The notes under the pieces were generated by a model, which was not told the origin of the DNA, ran no database searches, and saw only the letters and a list, made by a program, of their open reading frames with translations. From Candidatus Gottesmanbacteria bacterium (lineage in GTDB: Bacteria > Patescibacteriota > Microgenomatia > UBA10105 > UBA927): 56,822 bases of DNA. Position numbers and translations under genes: made by a program. Location: positions 1 to 56,822 of the forward strand of contig CAWEKC010000002.1 of NCBI GenBank assembly GCA_963809665.1, read 5' to 3'. Below, in pieces: positions 344 to 19,254 of this stretch; positions within the stretch are counted from its first letter, which is position 1, and each line of letters starts with the position of its first letter.

Positions 344-2279
344 ATGTACCCGCTTACTAATCCATTGTTCTGGTTTTATTTTTTATATTTTTTCGTTGCG
401 GTCTTTCTTGCATTTTTTGTCCCCGGGAACCTCATTATCCGCAGGCTCAACGTCTCCCTCCTTACCGAAATACTACTCAGTATCGTAACGGGGTTTGTCT
501 TGTGGTCTCTATCGGGATTTATTCTCGGCTATCTTCATCTGCGGATCCTCATGTACCTGTACCCCCCGCTGTGCCGTGATTTTGTGGTTAAAGTCTAAAC
601 ACTACCGGATGTTCCTTTATATTAGCAAACCGTATAAAACCTAATATCGCTCTGAGCATTGTCATACTCGTCGGAACACTTATACAACTCGCATCCATAT
701 GGGCAAACGGTATCAGCGTACCCGGCGGCGTCTATTTCTGCTGTGGCATACCGGATACGATTACGCACACATCGTTAACACAGGAGCTTGTGCGGCGAAT
801 TTCCTCCGAACGAACCGGGGTTCAGCGGAATCGCGCTTACCAACTACCATTATCTTTCGAACCTGGGGGTGCCGACCTCGTACGTGTTTTCAGCCTGCCG
901 CTTATCAGCACACAGTATCAATACATGACGGTTCTGTTCTCAGTGCTGCTCGGCATATCGGCGTTTGCACTAGCGGAAGCTCTATACTTAGGTAGACGGT
1001 TTACCTTCTGGCTGACATTTTTCCTGTATTTCTCCGGTGACATTATTTTTCTTTTACCGCTCATTACCGGTCACGGCATTAATTTTTCCTTAACGACGCT
1101 CGAAAATGCTTCCAACCTCTGGAAGCGTCCCAGATTTTATGCGCTTATCGTCCTGCTTTCCGGTCTGACTTTATTTGTATATTGGTTAAAAAAGAAGGAT
1201 ATCTATTCAGGGCTCATTATGGGGGTTGTACTCGGAAGCATCATTGGTTTTAAGGTATATGTAGGATTGTTTGTCCTATGCGGGTTTGCCATACTCGGAA
1301 TCATATATTTCCTGAATAAAAAATATTCAGCAATAATACCAATACTTCTTATCTTTGTGGTTTCCGGAATTCTCTATACTCTTGTGAATAGAGACGCAGG
1401 CGGGTTGGTGTTCTCGGGTTTCTGGCGGTTCGAGGATTTTGTCGTTCAGCCGTCACTCGGCTTATCACATTTAGAGTTGGCTCGCAGATCGTTATTTGAA
1501 CAATACGATGTCATCAGGGCATCTCTCTATGATGTGCTTTTCGGATTCCTATATATCTTCTTTTCAACAGGAACCCTTCTTATGGGTCTTTTACAAACAA
1601 GGGGTTCATTACAAAGAATCCCGAAAGATTTCATTACTCTGCTTGTAGGAGGGCTCCTATGCACAGGTATTTCAGGATTTTTCTTTCTTCAGCAAACCGG
1701 CGGTGCAAATTCATCGCAATTCCTCATATCAATCTATATCGTAGGTACGATATTTGCCGCATTATCAGTTTCATGGTGGCTGAATAAATTCCCCCGCTTG
1801 ATTGCCCTAACGGCGGCAATTGTAATAATTCTCTTAACTTCAGCCAGGACTGTATATGCCACTTACAGGCAGATGGAAAGAACAATAACGCGAGAAGGTT
1901 TATTGATACCAAACGATATATTGCAGGCTTACATATATTTTTCCGGTACAAAACAAGGCAGTGTGATCATGGTATACGACGATACAAATTTGGATTGCCT
2001 GTTAATCACAATATTCGGGAATCGCCCGACATATACTTGTACTGCCGGATTGCCGGGGGTAATCAGCGACGAACTACTTTTACAGAGGTATGATATAAAG
2101 AATAACATCTTTTTCGGAAATAATCTCGACCAGAGGTTAAAGAGAATTGACATACATCCAACGGAATTTCTTACATATATATTTCAAAAAATAATGTAAG
2201 GGAGACCAAAATCGGAAAACTGAATTTAATTAAAGTATATGAAACGGAAAATAATGTCATTTATAAGGTCCGGAATTAA
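344..2279 (+). CDS. Large polytopic membrane protein, GT-C-like (polyprenyl-sugar-dependent glycosyltransferase-like), broken by several indels
   Basis: ORFs 344-598 and 790-2199 join through alternative frames. FPPNEPGFSGIALTNYHYLSNL is read in a third frame at about 800-868, and a soluble C-terminus (GISYIYISK..VYE..IYKVRN*) ends at 2279. Many hydrophobic segments. Confidence 0.6.
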
Positions 2280-2322: not shown

Positions 2323-3855
2323 ATGCGCAGACTTTTGTCTGAAAAAATTCATCTATCATCCGACTTCGTACTTTCCTTATTTCTTTTTATCCTCACATTT
2401 GTCATCGCCGGCAGTTTTTCCGTCATCGGTATTGATGCCCGCCATGACGGGGCTATGTTAAAACCGGCATTGGATGTCTCACGCGGCCTCATGCTTTTCC
2501 GGGATTCATTGACTACGTACGGGGCTTTAGCTACGCTTATGCAGGCCGGCGCCCTCATGCTCTTCGGCAGATATCTTGTAACGCTGAAACTGCTCTCCGC
2601 TGCGTTTTACGGGGGTATTGCCGTATTGCAGTACCTTATATATAAACGGGTTCTTCCGGGATCAATGGCATTTATAACCGTAATTCTCTGGCTGTTTTTA
2701 GCTCCCTATTTTTTCTGGCCGTTTCTTATCTGGTCATCGGTTTATGCCCAGTTCTTCCAGCTTGTCGCCGTATATCTTCTTATTCTCTGGTTGGAACATA
2801 AACGGATGTCGTATCTTATTTCTGCCGGTGTAGCAACAGCGTGCGTTTTTTATACCCGTCAAACGGTCGGCGTATTTACCGCGTTCGGAATAATCGCATT
2901 TTTTATAATTCTCGCTATTGCGCGCAAACTGTCCCTGAAACAAACGGTGAATGATATTGCCGGGTTGATGTCGGGAATTATTGCCGTCGCCCTTCTCATT
3001 ACAGTTTGGCTGGCCGCCAATCACAGCATACCGGATTGGTGGAAACAATCATTTGTGCTCGGGACATTGCTTGCCACCCAATTTAACTCAATCGGTGACT
3101 TACTGAACCTCCTCAAAATCACGTTCTTCCCACTGTCAAACCCTATTTTTGTTACCAGCCCGGTCGAATTGTGGGTACTACTCCCCGTTACATCCGTTAT
3201 CGTATTCGTACAGTATTGTTTTTTCCGTAAAAAGGGTAATCAAAACCACGTATCATACGTCTTGTTACTTACGCTTGTTGCGCTGGCTTCGTGGACCCAG
3301 TATTATCCGATGATAGATTACCGTCATATCTACTGGGGAAGCACGCCGATGTTCGGGGTTCTGGCGTTATTTTGTTATGAACTTGGTGCGGTTTATCCTG
3401 TCCATTTTTAAGAAGAACTCAGTTCTGCTTGCTACTAGTAATTACAATCGTAGGATTATGTATTCTTTTTTATCCCGATATTTCCACGAGGGTTCTTGCA
3501 GGAAAAGGAAAAACTATCCGCGTCATATGAAACGCTTTCGTATCCGGCGGTTCTTCAGGGCGTACGGGTTACTGCCCGCGAAAAACAGTATATTACGGAT
3601 TTTGACAATTCACTGACGTCATATTTCAAAAATAATCCCGAAGGCTCAGTCGTAAATCTCAGCGGGGACGGACTCTGGCCGTCACTATACGATCACATGA
3701 CAAATATCCGTCCGTTATATTTGTATGCGGCCCAATTCATGTGGGCAGTCTATCCTGATTTTCTTCCCCGTACACTTACATATATAGCAACAAATCACCC
3801 GCTTGTTGTAACAGACCCGACATCCATTTCTTCCGGCGGGTTATTGTCCCGATAA
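2323..3855 (+). CDS. Polytopic membrane protein, GT-C/ArnT-like, frameshifted at about 3390-3500; 3' end uncertain
   Basis: N-terminal DARHDG loop, about 11 TM segments (ORF 2323-3411), then a soluble C-terminal piece (ORF 3496-3855). Confidence 0.55.
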
Positions 3856-5228: not shown

Positions 5229-5849
5229 ATGAACACCGAACGGGGCAGGCTCTATAACGTGGAAGGACTGGATGCGGCGGGAAAATCAACACTGGCTAAG
5301 GAATTACAGAAGAAATTTGACGGTGTTATGACATACAGCCCGCCGGACTGGATGAGACCGTACCGGACGTTTTCAACAACTCGCCAGCCGATATTCGGTT
5401 CCTGTATTATGCGTATAGTAATTTCTGGGTTGACAGGGTTATGGTACGTCCTCTTTTGGAACGTGACGGGAGATATGTATTCCAGGACCGGACATGGCTG
5501 ACGACGTTATCCGCACATGAAGATATGGGAACATCACGTATTCTGCTTCGGCTCGGATTAACAGCTCGCGAAAGCCGCAACCCGTCCCGATATCGCCTTT
5601 ATTATTCACGTTGATAACGCGGAAAGACGGCAGAGAATGATGAGCAGGAATGTGATTACCCCTGATGATATTACCAGTCTTGAAAACCAGGATGAAATGG
5701 AAAAAAGTCTGGTGTCATGGGTCGGTCGTCTCGGGTGGAAGACGGTTATCTTTGATAATTCGCACTTCACGCCCGATCAGGCGCGGGAGGAGTTAGTGCG
5801 GTATATCAGTGACAGAAATCTTAAAACGATCCCGGTAAAACCTCTTTGA
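5229..5849 (+). CDS. Nucleoside monophosphate kinase of the thymidylate kinase family, CMPK2-like (about 206 aa after fixing two compensating indels)
   Basis: P-loop EGLDAAGKST; SPP..MRPYRTFF..SP; DRTW motif in the shifted frame (5374-5560); RPD..FIIHV...ERRQR. One T is missing in TTTT 5370-5373 and there is one extra base near 5561. Confidence 0.8.
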
Positions 5850-6333
5850 TTGATATGTGTTGGGACTGACCCTTCGGTATATGGTATTCGACATTATCCC
5901 CTGCGTGCTTCCCCAGAAGCATCGTTCCTAACGGCGATTCATAGGAAATCCACCCCTGTTTGTTCTGAGACGCATCATCGGGGCCCAACAGGGTGAATGT
6001 TTCGTCTTCAGTCTCACCGGCAAACCTCACTGTAATCGTATTTCCGACGCCGATGGTATCTATTTGTTTGCGCGGCTCAATGATGGTCACGTCATAGAGC
6101 TTGTCTTTAATCTCGGAAAGCATCCGCGACGCCAGATCTGCCTGCCTCGATGCTTCTTCATACGCAAAGTTGTCATGGTATTCGTCGCCTTTCTCGATTG
6201 CCGCGCCCATTTCCAGCTGGAATCGTTTGTGTTGTTCCTGAAGCTGTGACAGCCGCTGCTCAAGGGCATCTTTGGTAAATTGCGTCATCAAACGGGATCC
6301 GGTACGGTTTTCCTGTTCAAATTTGTTATTCAT
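5821..6333 (-). CDS. greA: GreA/GreB-family transcript cleavage factor
   Basis: N-terminal coiled coil with acidic tip GDEYHDNFAY; C-terminal IS..SPLG..LLGK..GD motif; SD GGAGGG at 6339-6344; ATG at 6333 overlaps the PfkB stop. Confidence 0.85.
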   Translation of the reverse strand: MNNKFEQENRTGSRLMTQFTKDALEQRLSQLQEQHKRFQLEMGAAIEKGDEYHDNFAYEEASRQADLASRMLSEIKDKLYDVTIIEPRKQIDTIGVGNTITVRFAGETEDETFTLLGPDDASQNKQGWISYESPLGTMLLGKHAGDNVEYHIPKGQSQHISIKEVLPGSF

Positions 6334-7138
6334 AATCACCCTCCGATGTTATATGCTCCACGCCGAATGCCGAGACGGAAAGGGAAGCCAGGTTGACTGC
6401 CTTTTCCAGTGCGGTTTCCACAGGGACTCCTTTCGCACGCTGTGCTAAAAACGCACCGGCAAGTACGTCACCTGCGCCTGTAGTCTCAACGGAAGCAACA
6501 ACCGGCGCCGGTATCATTATTATATCGTTCCCGTGAATATATTCTGCACCGGATTTTCCTTTTTTAAGGACAATCGGTGTATCAAATACCGTCTCACCAA
6601 GCTCACGGACTATATTAAATTCCGCCTCGTTCGCAAATATCAACGAAGCTTTCCGGAACATCTGCTTTGTTAAATCCGGAAATTTTTCGACGAATTCCTC
6701 AAAACTATCAACGGAAACATGTGTATGGCCGGATAACATCTCCAGCCATGTTAAAGCATGTTCCGGCAATTGCGTCGGCAGATGGATAAATTTTGCAGAT
6801 ACATATGCATCAGGGAATATCGCTGTCTCTACAATCCCCGCCACGCCCCTTTGAGCCGCAAATTCTCTCGTATTATCCGGGTGCTGCGTTATAACAAACC
6901 TGCACGTTGCTCCGTTCTCCTTTATACGGATCCCTTCGATATCAATACCTTTCTGCGTAAGTACTGTTGTATCAAAATCCCTGCCGATCTTTGCCACCAC
7001 ACCCACTTTATCACTGTAGCGTGACGCCCCGACCGCAGCATAATACGCGGCCCCGCCGGGTGAAACTTTGCTTCCCGAGGGCGTAATGTCCTCATTCCAT
7101 GCAACATCGCCGATAATCGCAACATCCAGCTCTCTCAT
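6326..7138 (-). CDS. PfkB/ribokinase-family kinase (possible nucleoside kinase)
   Basis: PGGAAYYAA N-terminal motif, NEAE, and ETTGAGD anion-hole signature with the catalytic Asp; ATGA overlap with the RNR stop. Confidence 0.9.
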   Translation of the reverse strand: MRELDVAIIGDVAWNEDITPSGSKVSPGGAAYYAAVGASRYSDKVGVVAKIGRDFDTTVLTQKGIDIEGIRIKENGATCRFVITQHPDNTREFAAQRGVAGIVETAIFPDAYVSAKFIHLPTQLPEHALTWLEMLSGHTHVSVDSFEEFVEKFPDLTKQMFRKASLIFANEAEFNIVRELGETVFDTPIVLKKGKSGAEYIHGNDIIMIPAPVVASVETTGAGDVLAGAFLAQRAKGVPVETALEKAVNLASLSVSAFGVEHITSEGDYE

Positions 7139-8839
7139 AATTGTATTGGTTGGTTAATCTGACTTCCGTCCCTGTACACGGTAATGTTTTTTAATCCCAT
7201 GCCGTGCGCGTTGATAAAAATATCCAGAACATCCTGCACCGAAGCCGTTGACGGTAAATTCACTGTTTTGGAAACGGCTTCGTCATAGACGCTGCTTACT
7301 GCGGCAACCATTTTCAGCTGATCGATGGACTGATATCTCTTTAACTGTTTTAAGTACATCTTTGTCCGGGAGTGATCCGTTTTGAAACGTTCCACACGCC
7401 TGCGCCTGTTTCATGACACCGGAACTTTCATCGCCGGTCCTCTGCCGTACAAACGATTCTATGACTTTCCGGGTTTCATCGTTCAGTCTGTGCAAAGAAA
7501 ACAGCGGTTCTATGCTCGACGTTACTCCCAAAAGAATTGACGTCCTTCCTGTGGGTGGCAACGTCGTCGTCAATATATTTCTCAGGTATCCGGTATTCTT
7601 AATATACGCGGCGAACGATTCCCATGCCTCACGCGATACGGATTCAGTCGGATTGGCAGCATACCGGGACTCGATAAATCCGTTATAATATTTATTATTC
7701 TCCCGATCGGACATCGCACCGCACGACCCGCGATGCTCCGCCAGTCTCACTGATGCAACTTTCGATGAATAATTTATTGATGCAAGAATATTTTGCGCCG
7801 TTAGTCTTCCTTTGTCGGAATCGTAGGGTATTCCCAACTGAATAAGAGTATCCGCGAGTCCGCATACCCCGATACCGATTTTCCGTTTTAACGTTGCGAG
7901 ACGTTGACTCTCCTCATCGGGAAAGCCATTCCGGCTTATTTCTATTGCGTTATCAAGCGCTCTCACCATAACCGCCGTTGCCTCTGACAATTTTGTATAA
8001 TCCACTCCATCCTGTTTCACGAATTTTAACAGATTTATGTATCCGAATTGGCAGGTTTCTCCCGGGGCTAAACCCATCTCGGAACACGGAGGTGTTGACG
8101 TATATGAACTGATGGTTTTAATCGGATTATCCCTGTTCATCCGTTCCAAAGAAATAAGGCCCGGATCTCCGTTGTGATGCGCACACTGGGCCATTTCCTC
8201 CAATAATCCATAGGCATCTATATTTGTACCGTCCGACAATCTATATGATCTATGCTCCGTTGCGGATGCCATAAAGTCTTCGCTGACATCCACAGAAATA
8301 TTGAAGTGCTTCATGGATGAGTCTCTTTTCGCCCGGATAAACTCCCTGATCCGGGGATGGGAAACATGCAGGCTTCCCATATTGCCTATATACCTGTCAT
8401 ACAGTCCGGTTGCAGTTTCATTCGCTGAAAGTTCGTTTAACCAATGCAGGAGGCCGACGGGATCTTCGTATGATGTAAAATCAAATCCGGATCCCATATT
8501 TTGTCTGTAATACTTCCGTATTTTGACCGCTGCATCATCAAGTTTTCGTAAATCAACGGGTATTACGACGCAGGATGACAATGCGGCGTGAGAATATTCC
8601 GGTCTCCCTGCGTTGGTAAGCGTCGGTGTTCCGGGAGAAAGCGCACCTTCAAGCATATAACTGGCAAATAGGTCTTTGTTTCCCTGCGTTTCCCACTGAT
8701 CAATACCCCATGAAGATTCAACGGAAAACAGCGTGTGTACGACACGCTCAAACATATGCTGAGGTGTTTCTTCGGGGGCTAAAATTTTCCCTCCGGCTAA
8801 CATTTTAGTTACCCGTTGGGAAATTTCGAATTCTTTCAT
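7135..8839 (-). CDS. nrdJ: Divergent class II (B12-type, NrdJ-like) ribonucleotide reductase, about 567 aa after removing one extra base near 7327
   Basis: PTLTNAG, LSSC, NMG.L.V.HP.I.EFI.AK, FNISV, GDPG, PPCSE, ETC.FG.INL, RKIGIGVCGLAD, PTG..SI, SSIEP; C-terminal AVSKTVNLP and GLKNITVYRDGS. No class I Tyr-Tyr pair, no ATP cone. Confidence 0.85.
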
Positions 8840-8887: not shown

Positions 8888-8916
8888 ATAATACCTTCCA
8901 AACACAACTATGTCAA
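8888..8916 (-). promoter_or_regulatory. Near-consensus sigma70 promoter of the nrdJ-like/pfkB/gre operon
   Basis: TTGACA (8916-8911), 17-nt spacer, TATTAT (8893-8888), about 50 nt upstream of the ATG at 8839. Confidence 0.8.
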
Positions 8917-8953: not shown

Positions 8954-10084
8954 TTAACTTCTCTGCCTCAGGAAGGCGGGGATATCGAATTCGTCCTCTT
9001 CCGGCGGCAGCTCATCGTTTTTTATCGGCGGCGGGGGAGCCTGGTTGGACGTCTGGGCTACATGCGTCTGCGTCGGCTGGGCCATGGTACTGTAGCTGGG
9101 TTGGCCGGATAACTCCCGTAAACGTTTTTTTGTCTCGTCAAAGCCGGTTGCAATCACGGCAATCTTCACCTGATCCACCATATTCTGGTCAATGGTTGCG
9201 CCGAAAATTATATTGGCGTCCGGATCAACGGCGGAAGCAATTTGTTTTGCAGCCTCATCCACTTCGGCCATTGTAAGGTCCGGCCCTCCGGTTATATTGA
9301 ATAAGACTCCCTTTGCCCCTTCAATAGAAATCTCAAGAAGCGGCGATGCAATAGCAGTACGGGCGGCCGTTGCAGCCCTGTTTTCCCCGACACCGGTCCC
9401 GATACCCATAAGGGAACTTCCCGCATTGGTCATAATTGTCCGTACATCGGCAAAATCCACATTGATGAGGCCGGGCATCGTGATAAGATCGGCAATACCC
9501 TGCACCCCTTGGCCCAAAACCGAATCCGTCACACGGAATGCGTCCAAAAGCGTCATTTTTTTATCAATGACTTCCATAAGCCGCTGGTTGGGAATGACAA
9601 TAAGCGTATCCACTTTATCTTTGAGGTTCATGATGCCTTCTTCCGCAGTCACCATGCGTCTCGTACCTTCAAAATGGAACGGTTTCGTAACAACGGCGAT
9701 AGTGAGGGCCCCTAATTCTTTAGCAAGTTCCGCGATAATCGGCGTGGCCCCTGTTCCCGTGCCACCCCCTTCACCGCAGGTAAGAAATACCATGTCCGCA
9801 TCGCGCAGGTATTCCTTGAGTTTTTCGCGCGATTCTTCCGCGGCTTGTTTCCCTATTTCCGGATCGCCGCCTGCCCCGAGCCCGCGGGTGAGATTTTCTC
9901 CGATCTGTACTTTCGTCGACGCCTGGCAGGTAAGTAACGCCTGTGCGTCCGTATTGAGTCCCACAAAATCCACGCCTTTTATCTGGCTGCCGATAATCAT
10001 GGAGTTTATGGCATTGCAGCCGCCGCCGCCGATACCGATGACTTTAATTTTGGCAAACCGCGCAATGTCTGGTTTTATAAGCAT
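8954..10084 (-). CDS. ftsZ: Cell division protein FtsZ
   Basis: GGGTGTG tubulin motif, NVDFADV, C-terminal DIPAFLR peptide. Confidence 0.99.
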
Positions 10085-10126
10085 AAGACCGTTTGGGGGC
10101 AGAAGAATAATTGCGGCAGATTTATT

Positions 10127-11437
10127 TCAGGGCATGAATGACTTTACCAGATCAATGACCTTCCCTGCAAGTCCCTTAATCTGAACCTTCTCTCTTATTT
10201 TTCCGAAACCTCTGAACATACTTCCCGACTCACCCGGTTCTCCCCGTGCGCCGAATAATATAAGTCCGACGCTTGCTGCATACGCGGGGGTCATTATTTC
10301 ATCAACCAGTCCGGTAATTTTCTTCGGCTCTCCGATATGAACCGGCATGGCAAGGTTGCGGCGAGCCGCCTCAACGGCTCCGACCGTCAGTGCTCCCCCG
10401 CCGGTGAGTACGATTCCCGACGGTGTCATCCCGCCGAAACCGCTCCGTTTAATTTCGAGTCCCACCATGGTGAATATTTCGTTTAATCTCGGTTTGATAA
10501 TTCCCTCGACGAGTGTTTTGCGTGACAGCATCCGCAACTCTTCCGGTAGTCCTAAACCGGATACATCCAACTCGTCGCCCTTTTCTCCTTTAACCGTTTT
10601 TACCCCCGCCATCGGTTGATCATCATCGGGGACCGCAGGGATACGCGGAGCCTTTCCCAATAACAGTTTAATTTTTTCCGCGCTTTCCAGAGATACTCTC
10701 AGCCCTGCCGCCAGATCTTTGGTAATGTTTATAGCACCGATCGGTATCACGGATGAATAAGACAACGCACCTTCAACAAAAATCGCTACGTCGGTTGTCC
10801 CGCCCCCGATATCGATAAGTACGACCCCCAATTCCTTTTCCGTATCCGTTATGGTTGCAATACTTGATGCCAGGCCGCCGAACGCCATGCCTTCCACTTC
10901 AACCCCCAGTTCCTCCACGCATTTACGCAAATTGCGGGTCGCCGTGGCGCCCCCGGTAACCAGGTGCGTATCAACCTCGAGTCTCACGCCGGTCATGCCT
11001 ATCGGGTCTACAACCCCTTCCTGACTGTCCACGACATATCCCCGCGGCAGCACGTGAAGAATTTCTCGAGATGACGGAAGTGATACGGCTTTTGCCGCTT
11101 CGATTACCCGTTTAACATCGCTCTCTGATATTTCCTTGTCGGGCTCTGATACCGCAACAACCCCGTGGGAGTTTTGCGATGCAATATGCGCGCCTCCGAC
11201 CAATAAAAACGCCCGTGCGACCTGGGTGCCGGCCATTCGCTCGGCTGCTTCCAGGGATCCGGAAATTGCAACAGTTGCTTCCTCAATATTGACCACCTGG
11301 CCCTTCCGCAGGCCGCGGCTGGGTACCGAAGAAACGCCGATAACACGAGCGTCCCCTTCTTCGGGAACAGTCGCGATGAGGGTCGTAATCTTACTGGTTC
11401 CGACATCTATGCCGGATACTATGTGGTCTCGCGCCAT
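10127..11437 (-). CDS. ftsA: Cell division protein FtsA
   Basis: GIDVGTSK, IDIGGGTTD, VLTGGGA actin-like motifs; upstream of ftsZ. Confidence 0.98.
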   Translation of the reverse strand: MARDHIVSGIDVGTSKITTLIATVPEEGDARVIGVSSVPSRGLRKGQVVNIEEATVAISGSLEAAERMAGTQVARAFLLVGGAHIASQNSHGVVAVSEPDKEISESDVKRVIEAAKAVSLPSSREILHVLPRGYVVDSQEGVVDPIGMTGVRLEVDTHLVTGGATATRNLRKCVEELGVEVEGMAFGGLASSIATITDTEKELGVVLIDIGGGTTDVAIFVEGALSYSSVIPIGAINITKDLAAGLRVSLESAEKIKLLLGKAPRIPAVPDDDQPMAGVKTVKGEKGDELDVSGLGLPEELRMLSRKTLVEGIIKPRLNEIFTMVGLEIKRSGFGGMTPSGIVLTGGGALTVGAVEAARRNLAMPVHIGEPKKITGLVDEIMTPAYAASVGLILFGARGEPGESGSMFRGFGKIREKVQIKGLAGKVIDLVKSFMP

Positions 11438-11439
11438 AA

Positions 11440-12144
11440 CTAAAATTTTAATATTGGTTTGTTAAACCGCAGATCAATAAACGTGGGCAGTGTACCTTTT
11501 ATTCTAAACCCCGCAAGAAGCGTTTGTAAAGTAGCCAGTACCGTGGCAGTGGGCGCGTCCTGAGGAAAAATTATATCTAGTTTGCCGCTTTTGGCCCGTA
11601 ATGACCGGTCGTCTTCAACCGAAACTTCGCTCACCGGCAGGATACCGCGCATACCCGTTATAAAGGCTATACCGGCGGTAACCCGCGGGTCAGAAATTTT
11701 TTCACCGATACGAACGACCGGGATTGCTACGACAAGACGGGGGAGTTCCATTGACCCGGAACCGGTATCCCCCAACACCACAGCGCCGGCATCCACCAGT
11801 ACATCGCGCGCCGGAAGAATCAAACGGACAACAGCAGAGCGCAGCGTAGGCATAATTACCAAAGTATGAGGATATTTTATTTGAAACTGGATATCGGCAA
11901 GTATGGGATTGTCTTCCAGAAGTTGCGTCCGGAGTTTTGAAGCAGGAAACAATAATAACGTTTTCGGTAACCTCCCTTCATCAACCTCAACGCGGATATT
12001 ATTCCCGACAACGACAATATTGTTAATGGTAAATATTTTTATGCAGGTCCAATAGACCGCACCGGAAAACAATAGAAACATTACAACGAATCCCACCGCT
12101 CTTCCGAATTTTCTTAAAAAAATAGACCGTTTGGATTTTATCAT
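11440..12144 (-). CDS. ftsQ: FtsQ/DivIB-like cell division protein
   Basis: Basic N-terminus, single TM, POTRA-like region, C-terminal IDLRF..P; position between murG and ftsA. Confidence 0.8.
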   Translation of the reverse strand: MIKSKRSIFLRKFGRAVGFVVMFLLFSGAVYWTCIKIFTINNIVVVGNNIRVEVDEGRLPKTLLLFPASKLRTQLLEDNPILADIQFQIKYPHTLVIMPTLRSAVVRLILPARDVLVDAGAVVLGDTGSGSMELPRLVVAIPVVRIGEKISDPRVTAGIAFITGMRGILPVSEVSVEDDRSLRAKSGKLDIIFPQDAPTATVLATLQTLLAGFRIKGTLPTFIDLRFNKPILKF

Positions 12145-13256
12145 GGCGCTGGTAGCAGGCGTTCGATTTCACGCACCAATCGCTTCGTGCCGTCATGCGG
12201 GATCAAAGCTGCAAACGCTTTAGCCCGTGGCTGTAGCAAGGGAATCCCTGCCCATATTTTTTCAATTTCTTTTTTCAGAATCTCCGGGGTTAGGTTCTTC
12301 TGGGTTAAAACTTTTGCACCCCCGTTATTCGCCAACCAAACGGCATTCTGCTGTTGTTCTCCTGCTCCTGACCACGGGAGAGGAATCAGAAGCGAAACCT
12401 TACCGAGCGCCGCAAGCTCCATAACGGTATTGGCACCGGACCTCCCGAGGACAAGCCCCGCGCGGGACAATACCCAAGCCAATTCCGTGACGGGTAGATA
12501 TGGCCGGACGATATACCTGTTTCTATATGCAGCATCAAGAGCCGATCTGATATTTTGCGCCTCTGCGATCGATGTATCGCCCACCTGATGAATTATAGAA
12601 TATTTCCTTACTAGTGATGGCAGTACCGGATACAACAGACGGTTCAACGATTGGGCGCCTGTTCCCCCGCCGGTAACATATATGAGCGGGTACGTAGATG
12701 TTTCAACCGCATACGGTGCTTTTTTTGGCGGTTTGAACAACTCCGCACGCATCGGTAATCCGGTCAGGACCGCCTTGCCTTTCGGGAAATGTCTTACTGA
12801 CTCGGGAAAGGTTACGCAGACGCGTTTCGCAATGCGGGCAATTATTCTGTTGGCGAGTCCGGCGGTAATCGTCTGTTCATGCGTAATAACGGGAATACGG
12901 CACAAACCTCCTGCTATGGCCGTCGGAAGGGCCACGTATCCGCCGAAACTCAGTATGAGAGACGGCCGCAAGCGAATACAATGCCACAATGCCTGAATGC
13001 ATCCGACAGGGATCTTGAGAAGCGAAGGTATTGTCATCCGCGTCAGTTGACGCTGCAACCTGCCGGTAGTAATGGAAATAAACGGAATATTCTTTCCTGT
13101 AATCAGCCGGTATTCGAATGAAATAGTTCTGCTGCCTTCCATCGCATACTTTCTTCCGAAAAATACGACGGATACATCTTCCGGAAGTACATCGATAACC
13201 GCAAGTGCCGGTGTGATATGTCCGCCCGTCATGACAATGGTGTTGGTATGATTCAT
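12141..13256 (-). CDS. murG: MurG lipid II GlcNAc transferase
   Basis: GGHITPAL, FGGYVALP, HEQ, RSGANTV.E, QQQNA. Confidence 0.95.
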   Translation of the reverse strand: MNHTNTIVMTGGHITPALAVIDVLPEDVSVVFFGRKYAMEGSRTISFEYRLITGKNIPFISITTGRLQRQLTRMTIPSLLKIPVGCIQALWHCIRLRPSLILSFGGYVALPTAIAGGLCRIPVITHEQTITAGLANRIIARIAKRVCVTFPESVRHFPKGKAVLTGLPMRAELFKPPKKAPYAVETSTYPLIYVTGGGTGAQSLNRLLYPVLPSLVRKYSIIHQVGDTSIAEAQNIRSALDAAYRNRYIVRPYLPVTELAWVLSRAGLVLGRSGANTVMELAALGKVSLLIPLPWSGAGEQQQNAVWLANNGGAKVLTQKNLTPEILKKEIEKIWAGIPLLQPRAKAFAALIPHDGTKRLVREIERLLPAP

Positions 13257-14344
13257 GATGCTTTACTTATATTTAACAGAACGCCTACTGCGGCTAACAT
13301 AATAATAAGGCTGGATCCGCCATACGAAACAAACGGAAGAGGTACCCCCGTCAGAGGCATGAGCGCGACCATGGCCGAGAGATTGATAATAGTTTGCACG
13401 GAAATCCATGATGTAATACCGATTGCAAGTAGCCGTCCGAAACCGTCCCGCGCGCGTTTTGCAATCCGGAACCCCCGCCACGAAGCAAATACAAACATCA
13501 GAATGACGGCAACCGACCCCACAAAACCGGTTTCTTCTCCAATAATAGCAAATATCGAATCGGTATTTGCCTCCGGAAGGTATTCATACTTCTGGCGCGA
13601 TTGTCCTATGCCGACTCCAAACCACCCGCCGGATCCCAAACCCAATAACGCCTGCCGGATGTGATAGGAAGATCCCAACGGGTCCTGGTTTGGATGTAAG
13701 AATGTCGTTAAACGCGCCATGCGGTATGGGGAAATAATCGCAAGGAGCAGAATTCCTGCCCCAAGTACCGGAATAATGACTGCAAAATGGAGAACCGGCG
13801 CACCCGAGGCGAAATACATAATAAGTGCGATAGCGATAATTATGACACTGGTTCCTAAATCAGGTTCCAGAAGTACTAAACCAACGACCATTGAAACAAG
13901 TAATGCAAACGCGGCAAACCTTCCCTTTTCGCGGCCGGAAAACCAAGCGGAAAGATACATCGCCAGAACCAGTTTGGCAAGCTCGGCCGGCTGCAATACG
14001 AAAAATCCGAAATTAATCCACCGATGCGCACCCAACGCTGATACACCGATGACCGGCAAAAAAACTGCTATGAGCAATACAAGTGTTCCCAGAAGTGCCG
14101 GCAATGCAATCTTGTACCACGCGTGGTAATCGATGAAAGAGAATACGGTGAGAGCGACAAAACCGAGGATTAGCCACTTCAACTGGTCCCGGAGGTAATA
14201 GTATTGGTTTCCGAAATCCCGTACGGCAATAGCCACCGATGAATCGTACACCATCAGAACGCCGAAGAGCGATAATATGATGACCGCAATGAGCATCCAT
14301 CGATCTCCCGGACGCCTTTTTACTTTAAAGGAGGGAAACTTCAT
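13253..14344 (-). CDS. ftsW: FtsW (SEDS peptidoglycan polymerase)
   Basis: HRWI..G...QPAELAK, EPDLGT, LPEANTDSIFA, GVPLPFVSYGGSS. Start placed at MKFPSF (14344). Confidence 0.96.
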   Translation of the reverse strand: MKFPSFKVKRRPGDRWMLIAVIILSLFGVLMVYDSSVAIAVRDFGNQYYYLRDQLKWLILGFVALTVFSFIDYHAWYKIALPALLGTLVLLIAVFLPVIGVSALGAHRWINFGFFVLQPAELAKLVLAMYLSAWFSGREKGRFAAFALLVSMVVGLVLLEPDLGTSVIIIAIALIMYFASGAPVLHFAVIIPVLGAGILLLAIISPYRMARLTTFLHPNQDPLGSSYHIRQALLGLGSGGWFGVGIGQSRQKYEYLPEANTDSIFAIIGEETGFVGSVAVILMFVFASWRGFRIAKRARDGFGRLLAIGITSWISVQTIINLSAMVALMPLTGVPLPFVSYGGSSLIIMLAAVGVLLNISKAS

Positions 14345-15707
14345 GCTTAAATAATTTGCCGCGTTCCTTATAATTTTGAAACATATCAAACGATGCACAG
14401 GCGGGAGAAAGCAGTACCACGTCGCCCGCCGACGCCTGGCCGGCGGCAAGCGTTACAATATCATGCATGGACCGGACATCGGTAAGGATTTTTCCTGTGA
14501 ATCCCGCGTCTTTGACGGCTTTGACTATCCTGTCGGTCATCCGGCCTATCGCAATAAGTACCCTGACCGGATTGGCGGCAATTATTTTCCCCAGTTCGGT
14601 AAAATCCGAACCTTTTTCAGACCCACCCGCGATAAGAATCATCGGCTGTACAAACGATTCTATCGCGGCAATCGCGGTTTCGGGAACGGTAGAAAAAGAA
14701 TCGTTTACCCAGAGGACTCCATTTACTTCACGGTATATTTCTAGTCTGTGTTCCAAACCCTCAAAGGACAACGCCGCTGCACGGATTGACGCGAAAGATG
14801 CTCCTGCGGCTCCTGCTGCAAGGCTAGCCGCTGCAATATTATCAAGATTATGAATTCCCCGGAGTTTAATTTCTCCCAGAGAACAAATTTTTTGTGCGTT
14901 ATTTTGCAGCCGCATGTACACCGCCCCGTCGTGAACGTACGCATCCCGGGTTTGATCGGACCGGCTGAAGTATGCGATATGCGCGGGTGTTTCTGCTGCA
15001 AATGACAGGCTCGTCGGGTCATCGGCATTCAGAACAGCTGTATCGGTTTTTTTCTGATACCGGACGATGGATTTTTTTGCGTCGACGTAACTTTGACGGG
15101 TTTCGTGAAAATTCGAGGCAAGAGAATCCTGATTTGCTAAATGTTCCTGTGTCGTTTTCAGAATGACTGCAATATGCGGACTTTGCCTGCTGTCCTCAAG
15201 CTGAAATGACGACAGTTCCAATACGACTACGTTCGACGGTTTGATCGTTCTCACTTTTGAAAGTATGGGTATACCGACATTCCCTCCGAGCCAAACCTTT
15301 TTTCCGGCGGTTTCGAGCATCTGTGCGATAAGTGTACTCGTTGTCCCCTTCCCTTTTGTTCCTGTTACCCCGACGATCGGGGCAGTACATAAGGAAAAAA
15401 ATAATTTTGTCTGGCTGGTAATTTCGTGTCCGTCCCTCCGGACGGAAACAAGCTCCGGCAGACGCAGCGACATACCCGGCGTGCGTACGATAATATCAAA
15501 CCGGTTAATACGATTTAAATACCCCTCGCCCAACTGAAATCCCTCCGCAAGGGGAACAAGTTCCCCGTACGTATCCCCGAGTTGTTCTTTAGATCTGCGG
15601 TCGCAACACCAGATGCGCGCTCCTTCATTGTGGAAAAAAATCGCAGAGTCTATTCCTTCGACCGATAATCCTAAAATCGCAACTGTTTTTCCTTTATATT
15701 GCTGCAT
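14325..15707 (-). CDS. murD: UDP-MurNAc-L-Ala:D-Glu ligase
   Basis: GTKGKGTT, GGNVG, ELSSFQL, HRLE, NDSFST, LSPACASFD. Start placed at MQQYKGK (15707), overlapping the murI stop. Confidence 0.96.
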   Translation of the reverse strand: MQQYKGKTVAILGLSVEGIDSAIFFHNEGARIWCCDRRSKEQLGDTYGELVPLAEGFQLGEGYLNRINRFDIIVRTPGMSLRLPELVSVRRDGHEITSQTKLFFSLCTAPIVGVTGTKGKGTTSTLIAQMLETAGKKVWLGGNVGIPILSKVRTIKPSNVVVLELSSFQLEDSRQSPHIAVILKTTQEHLANQDSLASNFHETRQSYVDAKKSIVRYQKKTDTAVLNADDPTSLSFAAETPAHIAYFSRSDQTRDAYVHDGAVYMRLQNNAQKICSLGEIKLRGIHNLDNIAAASLAAGAAGASFASIRAAALSFEGLEHRLEIYREVNGVLWVNDSFSTVPETAIAAIESFVQPMILIAGGSEKGSDFTELGKIIAANPVRVLIAIGRMTDRIVKAVKDAGFTGKILTDVRSMHDIVTLAAGQASAGDVVLLSPACASFDMFQNYKERGKLFKHEVSLL

Positions 15708-16491
15708 ATTGTACCTGTACACCCGTATCCAATAACGTAGAGGCGATTCCTGATGCCTCCGGCCAATTCCTCGTCGAATAAAATATATGGTCGACTCTGT
15801 TACCATGGGCCAACATATGATTCTGCTCCAAAATCCTCCTCACATGCCGCGCCACAGCACCTCCCGAATCCAAAATGGCGATACCATCTCCTACTATAGC
15901 ACGGATTTGTTCCCTCAAAAACGGGTAGTGAGTGCACCCCAATGCGATAACATCAACATTCCGGCTCACTACGGGATCAAGGATTCCATGGAGTTCTTTT
16001 TCCAATACCGGTCCCCGCAACTTTGCTGCCTCAACGAACGAAATAAGGTTCGGGCAACCGAGATTGAAAACACGGCAATCACCGGCAAATTTCCGGATAA
16101 GTTTTTTCTGATACAAACTTCTGGCGGTTAACTCCGTTGAAAGGACGATAAACTTTCTTGTTTTTGATACGGCAGCTGCGGTTTTAACAACCGGTACGAC
16201 ACCGATAATCGGCATATCGGGAAACCACCGGCGGTATCTGTCAATACCTGCGACCGTCGCCGTATTACAGGCGATGACGATCAGTTTGACGTGCTTTAAA
16301 GTTAAGAACTGTATAATTTTTTTTACACGGGAGCGGATGATTCGGGGGGATTTTGTGTTATACGGCAGATATGCATGATCACCGATATACACCGTTGATT
16401 CGTGCGGAAGTAAACCTGTAATACTTTGGTACACGGACAATCCCCCGAAGCCGGAATCCATAATACCGACCGCCGCTGTTGGTTTTTCCAT
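15694..16491 (-). CDS. murI: Glutamate racemase
   Basis: DSGFGGLSV, ACNTA, LGCTHYP. Confidence 0.96.
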   Translation of the reverse strand: MEKPTAAVGIMDSGFGGLSVYQSITGLLPHESTVYIGDHAYLPYNTKSPRIIRSRVKKIIQFLTLKHVKLIVIACNTATVAGIDRYRRWFPDMPIIGVVPVVKTAAAVSKTRKFIVLSTELTARSLYQKKLIRKFAGDCRVFNLGCPNLISFVEAAKLRGPVLEKELHGILDPVVSRNVDVIALGCTHYPFLREQIRAIVGDGIAILDSGGAVARHVRRILEQNHMLAHGNRVDHIFYSTRNWPEASGIASTLLDTGVQVQYAAI

Positions 16492-16503
16492 AGAAGAAAC
16501 CCG

Positions 16504-17553
16504 TTATAGGGCAGGTACTTTTGTGAGCATCGCAATCCATAAACCGAAAATGGCAAGAATAATTGAAATTACCCACAAGCGCATCACGATCTTCGGCTCG
16601 GGCCAGCCGTTATACTGGAGCCATAAATGAAACGGCGCTACTGAAAATGCCTTTTTATGCAGGAATTTTTTCGATAACAACTGGACGAGTGATGATGTAA
16701 CCTCGACAACAAAAACACCCCCAATAACGACGAGTGCGGGCGCTTTCCCTAATACGAGCCCGACGACCGCCATAGTCGCACCGAACGAAAGGGATCCGAC
16801 ATCGCCTAAAAAGATACGGGCCGGAAAAATATTGAAATATAAAAATGCAATCAGACTCCCGAGCCAGATAGCAAGAAACACGGAAAGCGGCGTGTCCAGA
16901 ATCGACGCTGAAATGATCCAGAAAGCCCCGATGGCAATCATGAGGAGCCCCGGCGCAAGCCCATCCAGACCGTCGGTTATGTTAAATGCGTTGGCAAACG
17001 AAATGATGACAAGAGTCGCAAACGGTATGTACCACCACCCTAACCGAATGATGCCAAAAAGAGGTACGTAGAAAATATCAATCCGCAGGTCATGAATCAG
17101 CCAGAAACTGATGATACCTGCCAACAATATTTCCAACAGTAATTTGTGCCGGAGCCGCAGACCGAAAAATGTCGGCGTGATCCCTCCGAACGTTTTTTTG
17201 ATATCATCCAATAATCCGAGAGCCCCGAATGAGACAAACGTAAACAGAAGAATTTTAATTTCACTGGCGATAGGATACACAGCGGTGATGGGAAGCCAAA
17301 AATAATACATGATAAGCACCGCAAGAGGGAATAAAATTGTCGTGACCGCGATAATGAGTGCTCCTCCCCCGACCGGTGTCCCCGCTTTATTTTCATGAAA
17401 ACGGTCAAATATCGGCGTCCGTTTATTAAACGCGTCCAGGGTTTTTTGATGGAGCCTCTGCATGCGCCATTTATACAAAAGCCGTATAAAAGGAAAATAG
17501 AGAATGCTGCTGACGAGCCACGAAAATAGCACTAAACCAAGTAAAAAAACCAT
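16504..17553 (-). CDS. mraY: Phospho-MurNAc-pentapeptide transferase
   Basis: KAGTPVGGG, LLDD, NAFNITDGLDGL, IFLGDVGS, APFHLW. Start placed at MVFLLG (17553). Confidence 0.95.
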   Translation of the reverse strand: MVFLLGLVLFSWLVSSILYFPFIRLLYKWRMQRLHQKTLDAFNKRTPIFDRFHENKAGTPVGGGALIIAVTTILFPLAVLIMYYFWLPITAVYPIASEIKILLFTFVSFGALGLLDDIKKTFGGITPTFFGLRLRHKLLLEILLAGIISFWLIHDLRIDIFYVPLFGIIRLGWWYIPFATLVIISFANAFNITDGLDGLAPGLLMIAIGAFWIISASILDTPLSVFLAIWLGSLIAFLYFNIFPARIFLGDVGSLSFGATMAVVGLVLGKAPALVVIGGVFVVEVTSSLVQLLSKKFLHKKAFSVAPFHLWLQYNGWPEPKIVMRLWVISIILAIFGLWIAMLTKVPAL

Positions 17554-17558
17554 AGATA

Positions 17559-17915
17559 TTATAGGTACGGCAAAAACACGAAACCCGCAACAACGACGGC
17601 ACCGACAGCCACGGTCAGCATCATACCGGCCGCTACATCTTTGGCAATTTTGGCTTCGGCACGCCACTCGTGGGTAATAAGGTCCGTCATTGATTCAAGC
17701 GCAGTATTTATAAATTCAGCTGTAAGCCCAAGAACGATCGTAAATATGATGATAGCCCATTCGGTCCGGGTAATACGTAAATACCAGCTTAATAAGAGAG
17801 CGAATACGGCAAGAACGAGATGGATGCGGAAATTCGGTTGTGTACGCAGTGCCCATGCAAGGCCGGAAAAGGCGTTTTTGAACGAAACCGTATGTTTCCG
17901 GATGATTTCTCTCAT
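17559..17915 (-). CDS. dgkA: Diacylglycerol/undecaprenol kinase
   Basis: SFKNAFSG..NFRIH, EFINTALE..TD, AKIAKDVAAG. Confidence 0.9.
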   Translation of the reverse strand: MREIIRKHTVSFKNAFSGLAWALRTQPNFRIHLVLAVFALLLSWYLRITRTEWAIIIFTIVLGLTAEFINTALESMTDLITHEWRAEAKIAKDVAAGMMLTVAVGAVVVAGFVFLPYL

Positions 17916-17956
17916 AACTATATAAAAGTATAACGGCTCAACTGTAAAAATACAAA

Positions 17957-18910
17957 TTAGTACCCTTTAAGGTGTTTGCGTACGAGTTCTATGGTTTTCG
18001 GGATCACATACAGGGGAGTTACCGGATAATCCATCGCATGTATAAATGACACCGTACGCCCCCCGAACCCTGTTTTGAACAACGTTATACCCCGCCACGG
18101 ATGATTTAGTTTGTTGTCCGGCGCTATACCCCAAAAATTGTACAATTTTTTCCCCCGTTTCCTAGCCTCACAGACTGCCTCCCACTGAATTAAATAGGAC
18201 CCCGGAATTTTACTTGGTATCGAGGCTCCGTGATGGTAAACGGCCTCATCACCGAAATAGACAATAATTGCCGCGGCAAGTATTTTTCCTTCGAACGATG
18301 CAAGGTACAGCTGTGCGTCGAGTGTTTCCATCTCTTCACGGATGCCTTTGTGCTGCACAAAATTATGCCTGTTTGATGTGTCGCTGTATAAGTCAAGAAA
18401 CTTAGATATATCATTACTTTTTACAATTTTTACTCCCATTTTTTGTGCTTTCCTGATTTCATAGCGGGTAGTTTTACGCATCCCCGCCAGAAGGTCATCT
18501 TCGGTTTTATCCAAGTCCAGCACCCAGCAGACTTCCGCATCCATCGCATGAATCGGGGCGGGCACAAATCCCATATTTTTATACAAACCGGGTTCTGTTA
18601 CTTGCGGGCTGATGCGGATAAACCATGACCGTTCATTTTTGGCGAGTTCTTTAAGATCAGTAAAATTTATGTCACCTACCGGTCCGTGGCGGATATGGAG
18701 AAACATTCCGCGCCGGGCTGATACTTTAATTATTTGCGCAACACCGACAAGCGAGTTTTTGTCAAACCACCCCCACCGCCAAACATGATGACCCATCTTC
18801 TTCTCCACGTCTCCCCATGCCCATAATTGAAAAAGTGCATGAGGGGAATGGCTGAGAATAAACGCATTCCATACATTCTCCGATATAATTTCCTTTTTCA
18901 GTAGAACCAT
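17957..18910 (-). CDS. FemABX-family (aminoacyl-tRNA-dependent) peptidoglycan peptidyltransferase
   Basis: LFQ..AWG, HGPV, MRKTTRYEIRKAQK.GV, YHHGAS, YNFWGI, GITLFKTGFGG. Confidence 0.88.
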   Translation of the reverse strand: MVLLKKEIISENVWNAFILSHSPHALFQLWAWGDVEKKMGHHVWRWGWFDKNSLVGVAQIIKVSARRGMFLHIRHGPVGDINFTDLKELAKNERSWFIRISPQVTEPGLYKNMGFVPAPIHAMDAEVCWVLDLDKTEDDLLAGMRKTTRYEIRKAQKMGVKIVKSNDISKFLDLYSDTSNRHNFVQHKGIREEMETLDAQLYLASFEGKILAAAIIVYFGDEAVYHHGASIPSKIPGSYLIQWEAVCEARKRGKKLYNFWGIAPDNKLNHPWRGITLFKTGFGGRTVSFIHAMDYPVTPLYVIPKTIELVRKHLKGY

Positions 18911-18915
18911 GCCGT

Positions 18916-19254
18916 TTATTGTACCAGGCTGTGTAAAATCGTGGTTATGACGGAGAAAAGTATGGATCCCAATAGTGCGGTGAGGAACCCGTCGATTTTG
19001 AATCCCGGCGTCAGGGCACTGGCGAGCATAAGCATGAGCGCGTTCAGGACTAATGCAAAAAGTCCGAATGTGATAATGGTTACGGGAAGCGTCAGCAGAA
19101 AAAGAAGCGGTTTAATAAGAGCATTCACAAAACCGATGACAACGACGGCTATCAAAGCACTTCCGAAATCTAACAGGTGAATACCCGGCAAAATCTTTGC
19201 GACAATATACAGGGCGAGCGCATTGAGAACCCAGCGGACGAGTATGCTTATCAT
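18916..19254 (-). CDS. YvlD-like 4-TM membrane protein (phage holin 4_2 family)
   Basis: NALIKP.L.LLTLP..I.T.GLF..V.NA motif; 112 aa. Confidence 0.85.
   Translation of the reverse strand: MISILVRWVLNALALYIVAKILPGIHLLDFGSALIAVVVIGFVNALIKPLLFLLTLPVTIITFGLFALVLNALMLMLASALTPGFKIDGFLTALLGSILFSVITTILHSLVQ
18918..18926 (-). promoter_or_regulatory. Extended -10 (TGgTACAAT) 7 nt before the femABX-like ATG
   Basis: Built from the last codons and stop of the upstream gene (GTA CAA TAA). Confidence 0.55.

Follow-up and report, generated by a model that had tools for sequence, protein, structure and literature searches.

Proline in Place of the Catalytic Asparagine in a Class II-Type Ribonucleotide Reductase Homologue from Candidatus Gottesmanbacteria: A Possible Atypical, Tail-less Reductase

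Introduction

Can a member of the ribonucleotide reductase (RNR) family dispense with the asparagine of its active-site finger loop and, if so, which reaction would it then catalyze? The question is raised by a 56,822-nucleotide stretch of a Candidatus Gottesmanbacteria bacterium (contig CAWEKC010000002.1, assembly GCA_963809665.1), hereafter the window, whose minus strand carries a gene for an NrdJ-like protein with proline at the position of Asn437 of Escherichia coli NrdA, one of the four RNR residues which are treated as immutable. An initial annotation, made from the sequence without database searches, had regarded this proline as a peculiarity of one gene and had read it as a sign of altered chemistry. 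In this report, we describe the residue in its homologues, clusters and tree, as well as the accompanying changes, the genomic context and the distribution of the family. The proline is no error, and in our reading it is the state kept by selection in a large, uncharacterised branch of the dimeric class II (adenosylcobalamin-type) RNRs; we favour, with reserve, an atypical, tail-less class II-type reductase over a new radical chemistry. If reduction is indeed what these proteins perform, a class II enzyme works without the Asn and without the C-terminal redox shuttle, the minimal catalytic set changes, and the answer bears on how many Patescibacteria make DNA precursors; if it is not, a new radical enzyme family has arisen from RNRs, with a conserved kinase and Nudix partnership. 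The gene and its catalytic positions are as follows.

7135..8839, minus strand: NrdJ-like (Asn-less) RNR-family gene, 567 codons after deletion of an extra base at 7330
8054..8098, minus strand: finger-loop tip, residues 248-262, STPPCSEMGLAPGET, from codon reading and alignments
8090..8092, minus strand: codon CCT for Pro250, which stands where E. coli has Asn437 and Thermotoga maritima Asn320
8084..8086, minus strand: Cys252, the thiyl-radical Cys (Cys439 equivalent), invariant in the clade
8078..8080, minus strand: Glu254 (Glu441 equivalent), 79/79 in the clade
8051..8053, minus strand: Cys263 of ETC (Cys462 equivalent), 76/79 in the clade, Ser in a few members
8570..8572, minus strand: Cys90 of LSSC (Cys225 equivalent), 78/79 in the clade

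The Residue at the Asparagine Position

On the minus strand, the codons aca cct ccg tgt tcc gag read T249-P250-P251-C252-S253-E254, and the position given to the proline of the TPPCSE motif in the initial annotation (8092-8090) proved exact on re-reading. The gapless class II alignment it had reported was likewise borne out, as HMMER aligns 'stppcsemglapgetcqfgyinl' with 'stnpcgeiglsdyeacnlgsidv' of T. maritima NrdJ (E 5e-32), placing Pro250 on Asn320 and the following Cys, Glu and Cys on Cys322, Glu324 and Cys333; the family profile matches the structure 1XJE with an E value of 6e-82 over residues 206-636. Both the RNR barrel and the N-terminal domain are found by Pfam (Ribonuc_red_lgC, 2.8e-55, and lgN), and the thiyl Cys, the Glu and both redox Cys, described as retained, do stand at their canonical positions (C252, E254, C90 and C263).

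Among the 120 nearest homologues (48-80% identity), which stem from independent assemblies, mostly of Microgenomates-type Patescibacteria, the motif reads PPC[SAG]EMG in 118 and APC in two. A profile search covered 1.84 billion representatives, and in its best 150 clusters at 50% identity the position is occupied by Ala in 73, Pro in 8, Ser in 8 and Val in 3, thus being Asn-less in 92, by the canonical Asn in 39 and by Asp in 2, the remaining 17 being 16 fragments which lack the motif, plus a single spurious match. In the full comparison set, 79/79 clade representatives have Ala, Pro, Ser or Val, as against Asn in 13/13 canonical sequences, and a neighbour-joining tree built from 95 full-length sequences unites those with Asn and Asp in one clade, with all Asn-less sequences lying across a single split. 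The loss of Asn is the hallmark of a large clade and not the oddity of a single gene, and the natural variants with Pro or Ala, which the initial annotation had proposed to count together with their gene neighbourhoods, belong to a Pro/Ala/Ser/Val clade with PfkB and Nudix partners.

In this tree, the Pro group branches from within the Ala sequences and holds two reversions to Ala. Ala is the likely ancestral residue of the clade, and since the Pro group is nested in an Ala-bearing clade, the likely step was a single substitution from Ala (GCN) to Pro (CCN). A special mechanistic role for Pro itself was considered and rejected, because Ala appears ancestral, is the commonest residue, and has been regained by two members of the Pro group. 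There is practically no chance that an error of sequencing or assembly, or a mutation private to this genome, explains the Pro codon, a suspicion fed only by the indel problems which the assembly shows elsewhere; the homologue survey refutes it for practical purposes, with Pro in 118/120 homologues of independent samples and Ala, Ser or Val in the rest of the clade. The initial annotation had also thought an artefact unlikely, and this judgement stands on the homologues, but its argument that CCT is two substitutions away from an Asn codon falls with the probable origin from Ala.

Two sequences with Asp at the Asn position, P0247 and P0255 (TDPCGE.. and ..DTCEM..), cluster with canonical NrdJ and are without a Cys-pair tail; the Asp group may represent another case in which the canonical site was abandoned independently.

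Other Traits of the Asn-less Clade

The Asn-less clade is under strong purifying selection and shows many co-varying changes. The comparison of 79 Asn-less with 13 canonical sequences, in the numbering of the window protein, gave these differences.

Position 250: Ala, Pro, Ser or Val in the Asn-less clade; Asn in canonical NrdJ
Position 246: Tyr in the Asn-less clade; Ile in canonical NrdJ
Position 260: Gly in the Asn-less clade; Tyr in canonical NrdJ
Position 264: Gln, His or Val in the Asn-less clade; Asn in canonical NrdJ
Position 265: Phe in the Asn-less clade; Leu in canonical NrdJ
Position 267: Tyr in the Asn-less clade; Ser in canonical NrdJ
Position 115: Met in the Asn-less clade; Gly in canonical NrdJ
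Position 326: Cys in the Asn-less clade; Met in canonical NrdJ
Position 428: Pro in the Asn-less clade; Ala in canonical NrdJ
Position 432: Arg in the Asn-less clade (56/79); Thr or Ser in canonical NrdJ

The corresponding tyrosines and substrate-binding loops lie in the window as follows.

8039..8041, minus strand: Tyr267, clade-specific in 74/79 (Ser in canonical NrdJ), on the same protein strand as Cys263
8102..8104, minus strand: Tyr246, clade-specific in 73/79 (Ile in canonical NrdJ), on the ascending finger-loop strand
8375..8419, minus strand: loop-2 region ETATGLYDRYIGNMG, with Glu141, Arg149, Ile151 and Asn153 invariant within the Pro group
8624..8635, minus strand: apical phosphate loop P-G-T-P
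7544..7558, minus strand: distal phosphate loop PPTGR, with Arg432 invariant throughout the Pro group and present in 56/79 of the wider clade (Thr/Ser in canonical NrdJ)

At a pairwise identity of only ~30-45% within the clade, Cys90 (78/79), Cys252, Glu254 (79/79), Cys263 (76/79), the loop-2 Arg149 and the core RNR motifs are kept; the homologue alignment has a mean column identity of 55%, with C90, C252, E254 and R149 among its invariant columns. Arg149 corresponds in the alignment to the conserved loop-2 Arg of NrdJ, while the rest of the loop is rewritten (TATGxYDRYIGNMG in the window protein, KQGSRRRGALMG in T. maritima NrdJ). The apical loop resembles the diphosphate-type P-N-S-P more than the triphosphate-type P-x-G-R, the two types distinguished by Schell et al. 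(PMC8365446), and the finger loop has the Pro at the 438-equivalent position which is diagnostic of class II, Leu being found there in class I (PASV preprint).

The C-terminus is altered as well. The window protein ends in ..YRDGSQINQPIQL, Cys-free and 11 residues past YRD, and Asn-less sequences in general stop 5-18 residues past YRD, whereas canonical ones carry Cys-containing tails or Zn-finger domains; at least two tail Cys are present in 3/82 Asn-less versus 11/13 Asn-bearing sequences (Fisher p = 3e-10, the events not being phylogenetically independent). A C-terminal Cys pair or Cys-rich Zn-finger domain, or else a split NrdJb, serves the re-reduction of class II enzymes, and some accepted class II sequences are without tail Cys (PMC5704485, PMC9669993). 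No NrdJb-like gene occurs in the 33 neighbourhoods examined. The segment Gly118-Trp133 counts 15 residues in the clade versus 29 in most canonical NrdJ, but 17 in the Asn-bearing P0227. The idea that only this clade has a shortened loop-1 region was dropped, as this canonical NrdJ is nearly as short.

AlphaFold2, run with a 78-sequence alignment, gave a confident model (predicted local distance difference test, pLDDT, 94.7; predicted template modelling score, pTM, 0.94), and the superposition on T. maritima NrdJ that had been suggested shows the same fold (template modelling score, TM, 0.85). In a Foldseek search of the PDB, T. maritima NrdJ accounts for all of the top 21 matches (TM 0.83-0.86, 25% identity), and class I alpha subunits come next. 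With this dimeric class II, adenosylcobalamin-dependent ribonucleoside-diphosphate reductase (PDB 1XJE, 3O0N), the window protein shares the full-length fold at 25% identity, the xPCxE finger loop with the class II-diagnostic Pro, the thiyl Cys, the Glu, both redox Cys, the loop-2 Arg, the VYRDGS C-terminal strand and the diphosphate-like apical loop. Unlike it, the window protein has Pro for Asn320 (most of the clade having Ala), a C-terminus that lacks the Cys-containing extension, 14 residues fewer between the GxG motif and the next helix, Tyr246, Gly260, Phe265 and Tyr267 for Ile, Tyr, Leu and Ser, and an Arg in the distal phosphate loop.

Every NCBIfam RNR cut-off is missed by the window protein: it scores 351.1 bits against TIGR02504 NrdJ_Z (cut-off 399.95), where six other clade members also remain below at 289-366 bits, 176 against TIGR02506 NrdE_NrdA (cut-off 341), and 153 against NF005401 'ribonucleotide reductase-like protein' (PRK06948; cut-off 906), where other clade members reach 145-196 bits. 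The NrdD model is absent among its 21 NCBIfam matches, a C-terminal glycyl-radical domain is lacking, and no ferritin-like or RNR small-subunit Pfam domain was found among the called neighbourhood genes, for which no dedicated search was made. Homologues are labelled 'hypothetical protein' at NCBI and RNR alpha chain at JGI. By its sequence, then, the window protein is to be placed as a descendant of class II RNRs which fails three features of membership (the Asn, the redox tail and the family cut-off), and it would not be classed as a standard class II RNR.

A Possible Reductase without Asn and Redox Tail

In the favoured scheme, the protein would be an active thiyl-radical enzyme on nucleoside diphosphates, with substrate supplied by salvage (nucleoside to nucleoside monophosphate to nucleoside diphosphate to deoxynucleoside diphosphate). 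The 2'-OH would most likely be removed reductively via the Cys90-Cys263 pair, water, backbone or remodelled residues would provide the hydrogen bonds of the missing Asn, as happens in class III RNRs, and re-reduction of the active-site disulfide would proceed directly or through a small reductant instead of a C-terminal shuttle. As a hypothesis, Tyr267, Tyr246 or Gln264 might reach the vacated Asn site. The binding and homolysis of adenosylcobalamin are suggested by the nesting of the clade within NrdJ.

Catalytic activity is argued from the catalytic residues, which are invariant at 30-45% pairwise identity, and continued use of the reductive half-reaction from the Cys462 equivalent, kept in 76/79 sequences (96%). 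The only established role of this Cys is in the reduction step, and its mutation leads to free base, not deoxynucleotide (PMC4493059). The class III RNRs (NrdD; formate- and thioredoxin-dependent) are likewise without an Asn437 equivalent and without a C-terminal Cys shuttle: the equivalents of both Asn437 and Glu441 are absent, the hydroxyls are held by backbone and water, Tyr stands for the essential Asn in one subclass, and the reductant is formate or thioredoxin, with no C-terminal shuttle (PMC4493059). Since class III RNRs reduce, the RNR barrel can work without that Asn, and the loss of Asn alone does not imply lost reduction. The altered-chemistry reading of the initial annotation is supported in part: the protein is not a standard class II RNR, but the outcomes it proposed (dehydration, a keto product, base release or a different substrate) are guesses. 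Unlike NrdD, the window protein has no glycyl-radical domain, keeps the Glu and both Cys, and nests with NrdJ in sequence and structure.

Genomic Neighbourhood and Distribution

The elements surrounding the gene in the window are listed below.

6326..7138, minus strand: PfkB-family kinase gene, whose ATG overlaps the stop codon of the RNR-like gene (ATGA)
5821..6339, minus strand: GreA-family gene, overlapping the end of the PfkB gene
8888..8916, minus strand: promoter-like TTGACA-17-TATTAT, an 11/12 match to a sigma-70-like consensus only, ending 48 nt upstream of the ATG

Because of the overlap of stop and start, the RNR-like and PfkB genes are regarded as translationally coupled, and the GreA gene probably belongs to the same operon. 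The window gene follows ftsZ, at the end of the division and cell wall (dcw) cluster. This cluster, complete and directly upstream of the operon (8954..31461, minus strand), holds genes for MraW, an FtsI-type penicillin-binding protein, Mur ligases, MurB, a MurA-like, a GlmU-like and a FemAB-family protein, MraY, glutamate racemase, MurD, FtsW, MurG, FtsA and FtsZ.

Neighbourhoods were compared over 10 kb on each side of the match in 33 related loci, 22 of them distinct for the PfkB count. A PfkB gene lies directly downstream in ~15/22 distinct loci, including an actinobacterial one, and is fused to a Nudix domain in several Patescibacteria; GreA is adjacent too in L001-3, L009, L012-15 and L024. 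In the clade, the gene usually shares an operon with a PfkB kinase, a Nudix or HD hydrolase, or both. In three loci the RNR-like gene is adjoined by that of a genuine PyrH UMP kinase, which exceeds the cut-off with 279 bits; a 37%-identical Ala-type member is flanked by an AAA_18 P-loop kinase, Nudix and GreA, and thymidylate kinase, Nudix and a YfbR-like HD protein are found near the gene in related loci. The top NCBIfam match of the PfkB partner, far below threshold, is an ATP-dependent ribose-1-phosphate kinase in three distant loci (window 6326..7138; L006 8287-9525; L027 11709-12575), and its nearest PDB relative is an uncharacterised kinase, while the Nudix partners resemble MutT or (d)NTP-pyrophosphatases. 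A nucleotide context made up of PfkB, PyrH, MutT-like Nudix, thymidylate kinase and YfbR-like HD proteins, together with the diphosphate-like PGTP loop, speaks for a reductase, and the PfkB/PyrH context fits salvage in organisms without de novo nucleotide synthesis. Rfam detected neither a riboswitch nor any other RNA in the window; in six related loci its matches were tRNAs only. The defence models of PADLOC-DB 2.0 gave no match for P0002, P0159 or the PfkB partner, and a weak PDC-S07 match (39 bits) for the Nudix partner of Amycolatopsis.

A scan of GTDB returned 19 loci, nearly all from Patescibacteria (Gottesman- and Roizmanbacteria), with one from an Egibacteraceae actinobacterium in which the order is TrwC relaxase, HTH_31 regulator, RNR-like, PfkB, HD. 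A homologue search from an Amycolatopsis member reached >40 named actinomycetes, all with APCAEVGL and none with a tail Cys pair, among them Amycolatopsis spp., Saccharomonospora, Lentzea, Streptoalloteichus, Actinokineospora, Saccharothrix, Prauserella marina, Kibdelosporangium, Pseudonocardia and Actinomadura. The actinomycete unit is a cassette of an HTH_31 (XRE-type) regulator, the RNR-like gene and Nudix, set among unrelated genes. In some cases it lies on mobile DNA: in L008 (1-9300) it sits on an integrative element with an integrase by four tRNA genes, an N6/N4 methyltransferase, a type IV secretion system pilin and TrbL, and L027 has a TrwC relaxase-helicase (3135-9844) with a D12 adenine methyltransferase nearby. 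The clade is absent from the phage and plasmid collections, where only canonical NrdJ at <=35% identity was met, and from IMG/VR, which gave one 25% match.

Several third-party annotation (TPA) metagenome-assembled genomes with such loci are titled 'uncultured Gammaproteobacteria' or 'Pseudomonadales' (L012, L015-L018, L022, L023, L025, L028-L030). In those with detectable neighbour genes, L012 and L015-L017 (54-78% identity to the query), the order is RNR-like/PfkB or PfkB-Nudix, with GreA or PyrH alongside, and since this is the gene order of genomes labelled as Patescibacteria, these titles look unreliable.

Alternative Functions of the Clade

The possibility, somewhat weaker than that of a reductase, that the clade has become a neofunctionalised radical enzyme deserves serious weighing. 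The thiyl radical and H3' abstraction would be kept, and the standard thioredoxin-coupled reduction of four ribonucleotides would be lost; one nucleotide or ribose-phosphate could undergo, for instance, a redox-neutral 2'-dehydration to a 3'-keto-2'-deoxy compound, the partner Nudix/HD hydrolase and kinase could process the product, and on actinomycete mobile elements the outcome could be nucleotide modification, depletion or defence. Glycyl-radical thiyl dehydratases such as glycerol dehydratase offer a mechanistic analogy on the same 10-stranded barrel, in which a Cys abstracts H, the neighbouring OH leaves and the H is returned in a redox-neutral dehydration; unlike these enzymes, of which only the barrel is shared in sequence terms, the window protein has no glycyl-radical domain. 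Such a change of function is consistent with the coincidence of Asn loss, redox-tail loss and coordinated remodelling of the finger loop, with a conserved PfkB, AAA_18 kinase and Nudix/HD partnership atypical of nrd operons, with the sub-threshold likeness of the PfkB partner to ribose-1-phosphate kinase in three distant loci, and with copies broken in three lineages. Free-living actinomycetes are expected to possess standard RNRs, and in these genomes the gene forms an HTH_31-regulated cassette, in cases associated with an integrative element by tRNAs or a TrwC relaxase. The segment Gly118-Trp133, 14 residues shorter than in most NrdJ, would also fit a lost four-substrate allosteric control, but the canonical, Asn-bearing P0227 has a short loop as well. 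Against a change of function stands the Cys462 equivalent, present in 96% of the clade, which a keto-forming or redox-neutral enzyme should not need; moreover, no defence model of PADLOC is matched, and the clade is missing from phage, plasmid and IMG/VR collections. In its most developed form, the alternative makes the clade a new adenosylcobalamin-dependent thiyl-radical enzyme derived from NrdJ which does not simply make four dNDPs, and which with the kinase and the Nudix/HD protein would be a three-part module turning one salvaged nucleotide or ribose phosphate into another product, serving as a housekeeping function in bacteria of the candidate phyla radiation and, under regulation, as an accessory cassette on mobile elements of actinomycetes; we consider this rather unlikely. 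Such a module might yield a modified nucleotide, for instance a 3'-keto-2'-deoxy one, or else a deoxyribose phosphate independent of the base.

A catalytically dead pseudoenzyme, that is, an RNR-derived nucleotide-binding or regulatory protein like the inactive betaherpesvirus R1 homologues, is very improbable. A residue regarded as essential and the tail are missing, the scores lie under every curated RNR model cut-off, some copies are broken, and the betaherpesvirus UL45/M45 proteins are likewise RNR-derived and without the residues for standard catalysis. Unlike UL45/M45, in which the catalytic set is lost, the clade keeps Cys, Glu, Cys and Cys almost invariantly (C252 and E254 invariant, C90 and C263 in at least 96%) at only ~30-45% shared identity; the phosphate-binding loops and the loop-2 Arg are conserved too, and pseudoenzymes normally lose such residues.

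The preferred view of an atypical reductase has its own difficulties. The natural Ala, Ser or Pro mimics the E. coli NrdA mutants N437A or N437S at the same position; laboratory mutants of Asn437 and Cys462 are reported to be inactive or suicidal, and they are single changes in an otherwise standard enzyme, and Kasrayan and colleagues reportedly found in 2002 that Asn437 substitutions inactivate the E. coli class I enzyme. There is no C-terminal Cys pair and no neighbouring NrdJb-like gene to supply reducing equivalents, Ser replaces Cys263 in a few members, the three broken copies suggest that the gene is dispensable, and in actinomycetes it sits in an accessory, regulator-linked cassette, sometimes on conjugative elements. 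Finally, the field treats Asn437 as immutable (PASV preprint).

The Frameshift in the Window and Broken Copies Elsewhere

A one-base insertion in the gene had gone unnoticed in the initial annotation.

7330..7330, minus strand: inserted G, not in a homopolymer, with the frame lost between ..VKEIS and SIDQLKMVAAV...

As written, the gene consists of two open reading frames (ORFs), 7283..8839 (518 aa), which terminates in nonsense sequence, and 7135..7395, which holds the last 64 codons in the other frame, including the conserved C-terminus ..SIDQLKMVAAVSSVYDEAVSKTVNLP..ITVYRDGSQINQPIQL. Deletion of the G at 7330 yields a 567-aa protein that aligns end to end with its homologues, which are single ORFs of ~567-570 aa (P0006, for example, is continuous through ..VKEISSIDQLEMVAAV..). 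Identity to the homologues is 70-81% over the 64 residues past the lesion and 75-80% over the 503 before it, with no further stops, and because it is equal on both sides, the lesion would be recent or an assembly error. The window copy thus appears to be interrupted by either an assembly error or a very recent lesion. No public sequencing runs containing the stretch, which would bear on the Pro codon as well as the frameshift, were found.

A single-base frame change at ~27,080 (27,075-27,090) likewise divides a YfiH/PgeF-type (Cu-oxidase_4) gene of the window (26626..~27340, minus strand): the N-terminal ~110 residues are encoded in one frame, and the C-terminal 150 aa that match Pfam in a different one. 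Two lesions of this kind within 57 kb point to indels in the assembly or to gene decay in progress.

One lesion each breaks the gene in 3/18 fully covered Patescibacteria-type loci, namely the window, L021, where an in-frame TAG (2139-2141) falls exactly on the clade-specific Tyr246 codon, and L026, with an in-frame TGA in a variable region (11255-11257). The two stops may mean that the gene is dispensable in some lineages, or may be consensus errors. Whatever the function of the family, it is quite conceivable, if less than probable, that the window copy is a recently inactivated pseudogene and not a mis-assembled intact gene: the insertion lies outside any homopolymer, a second gene of the window is frameshifted too, and the same gene has nonsense codons in two other lineages. 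On the other side, there is only a single lesion, the 64 codons past it are stop-free and as homologue-like as the 503 before, and two single-base insertions per 57 kb are also compatible with assembly error.

Relation to Previous Work

A full-text literature search, outside whose coverage most subscription journals lie, yielded no description of an Asn-less NrdJ-like clade, so that a prior description is possible; the large branch of B12-type RNR relatives is apparently undescribed. The clade is unmentioned in the large RNR phylogeny papers; Burnim et al. noted Cys-less class II C-termini and did not comment on the Asn. In the PASV preprint, RNR homologues without N437, C439, E441 or C462 were discarded as bycatch (286 of 29,401 RNRdb representatives), and because pipelines discard Asn-less homologues as non-functional 'bycatch', the clade was probably filtered out of RNR phylogenies. 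Since the clade occurs in cultured actinomycetes (Amycolatopsis, Prauserella marina, Kibdelosporangium, Saccharomonospora and others), the question of its function is directly testable.

Elsewhere in the window, three ORFs of 469, 362 and 623 aa (790..2199 and 2323..3411, plus strand; 53293..55164, minus strand) have no Pfam match at E <= 1e-3 or 1e-4, and a 993-aa ORF (43367..46348), situated amid glycosyltransferase genes, has a weak Wzy_C (O-antigen ligase) match only.

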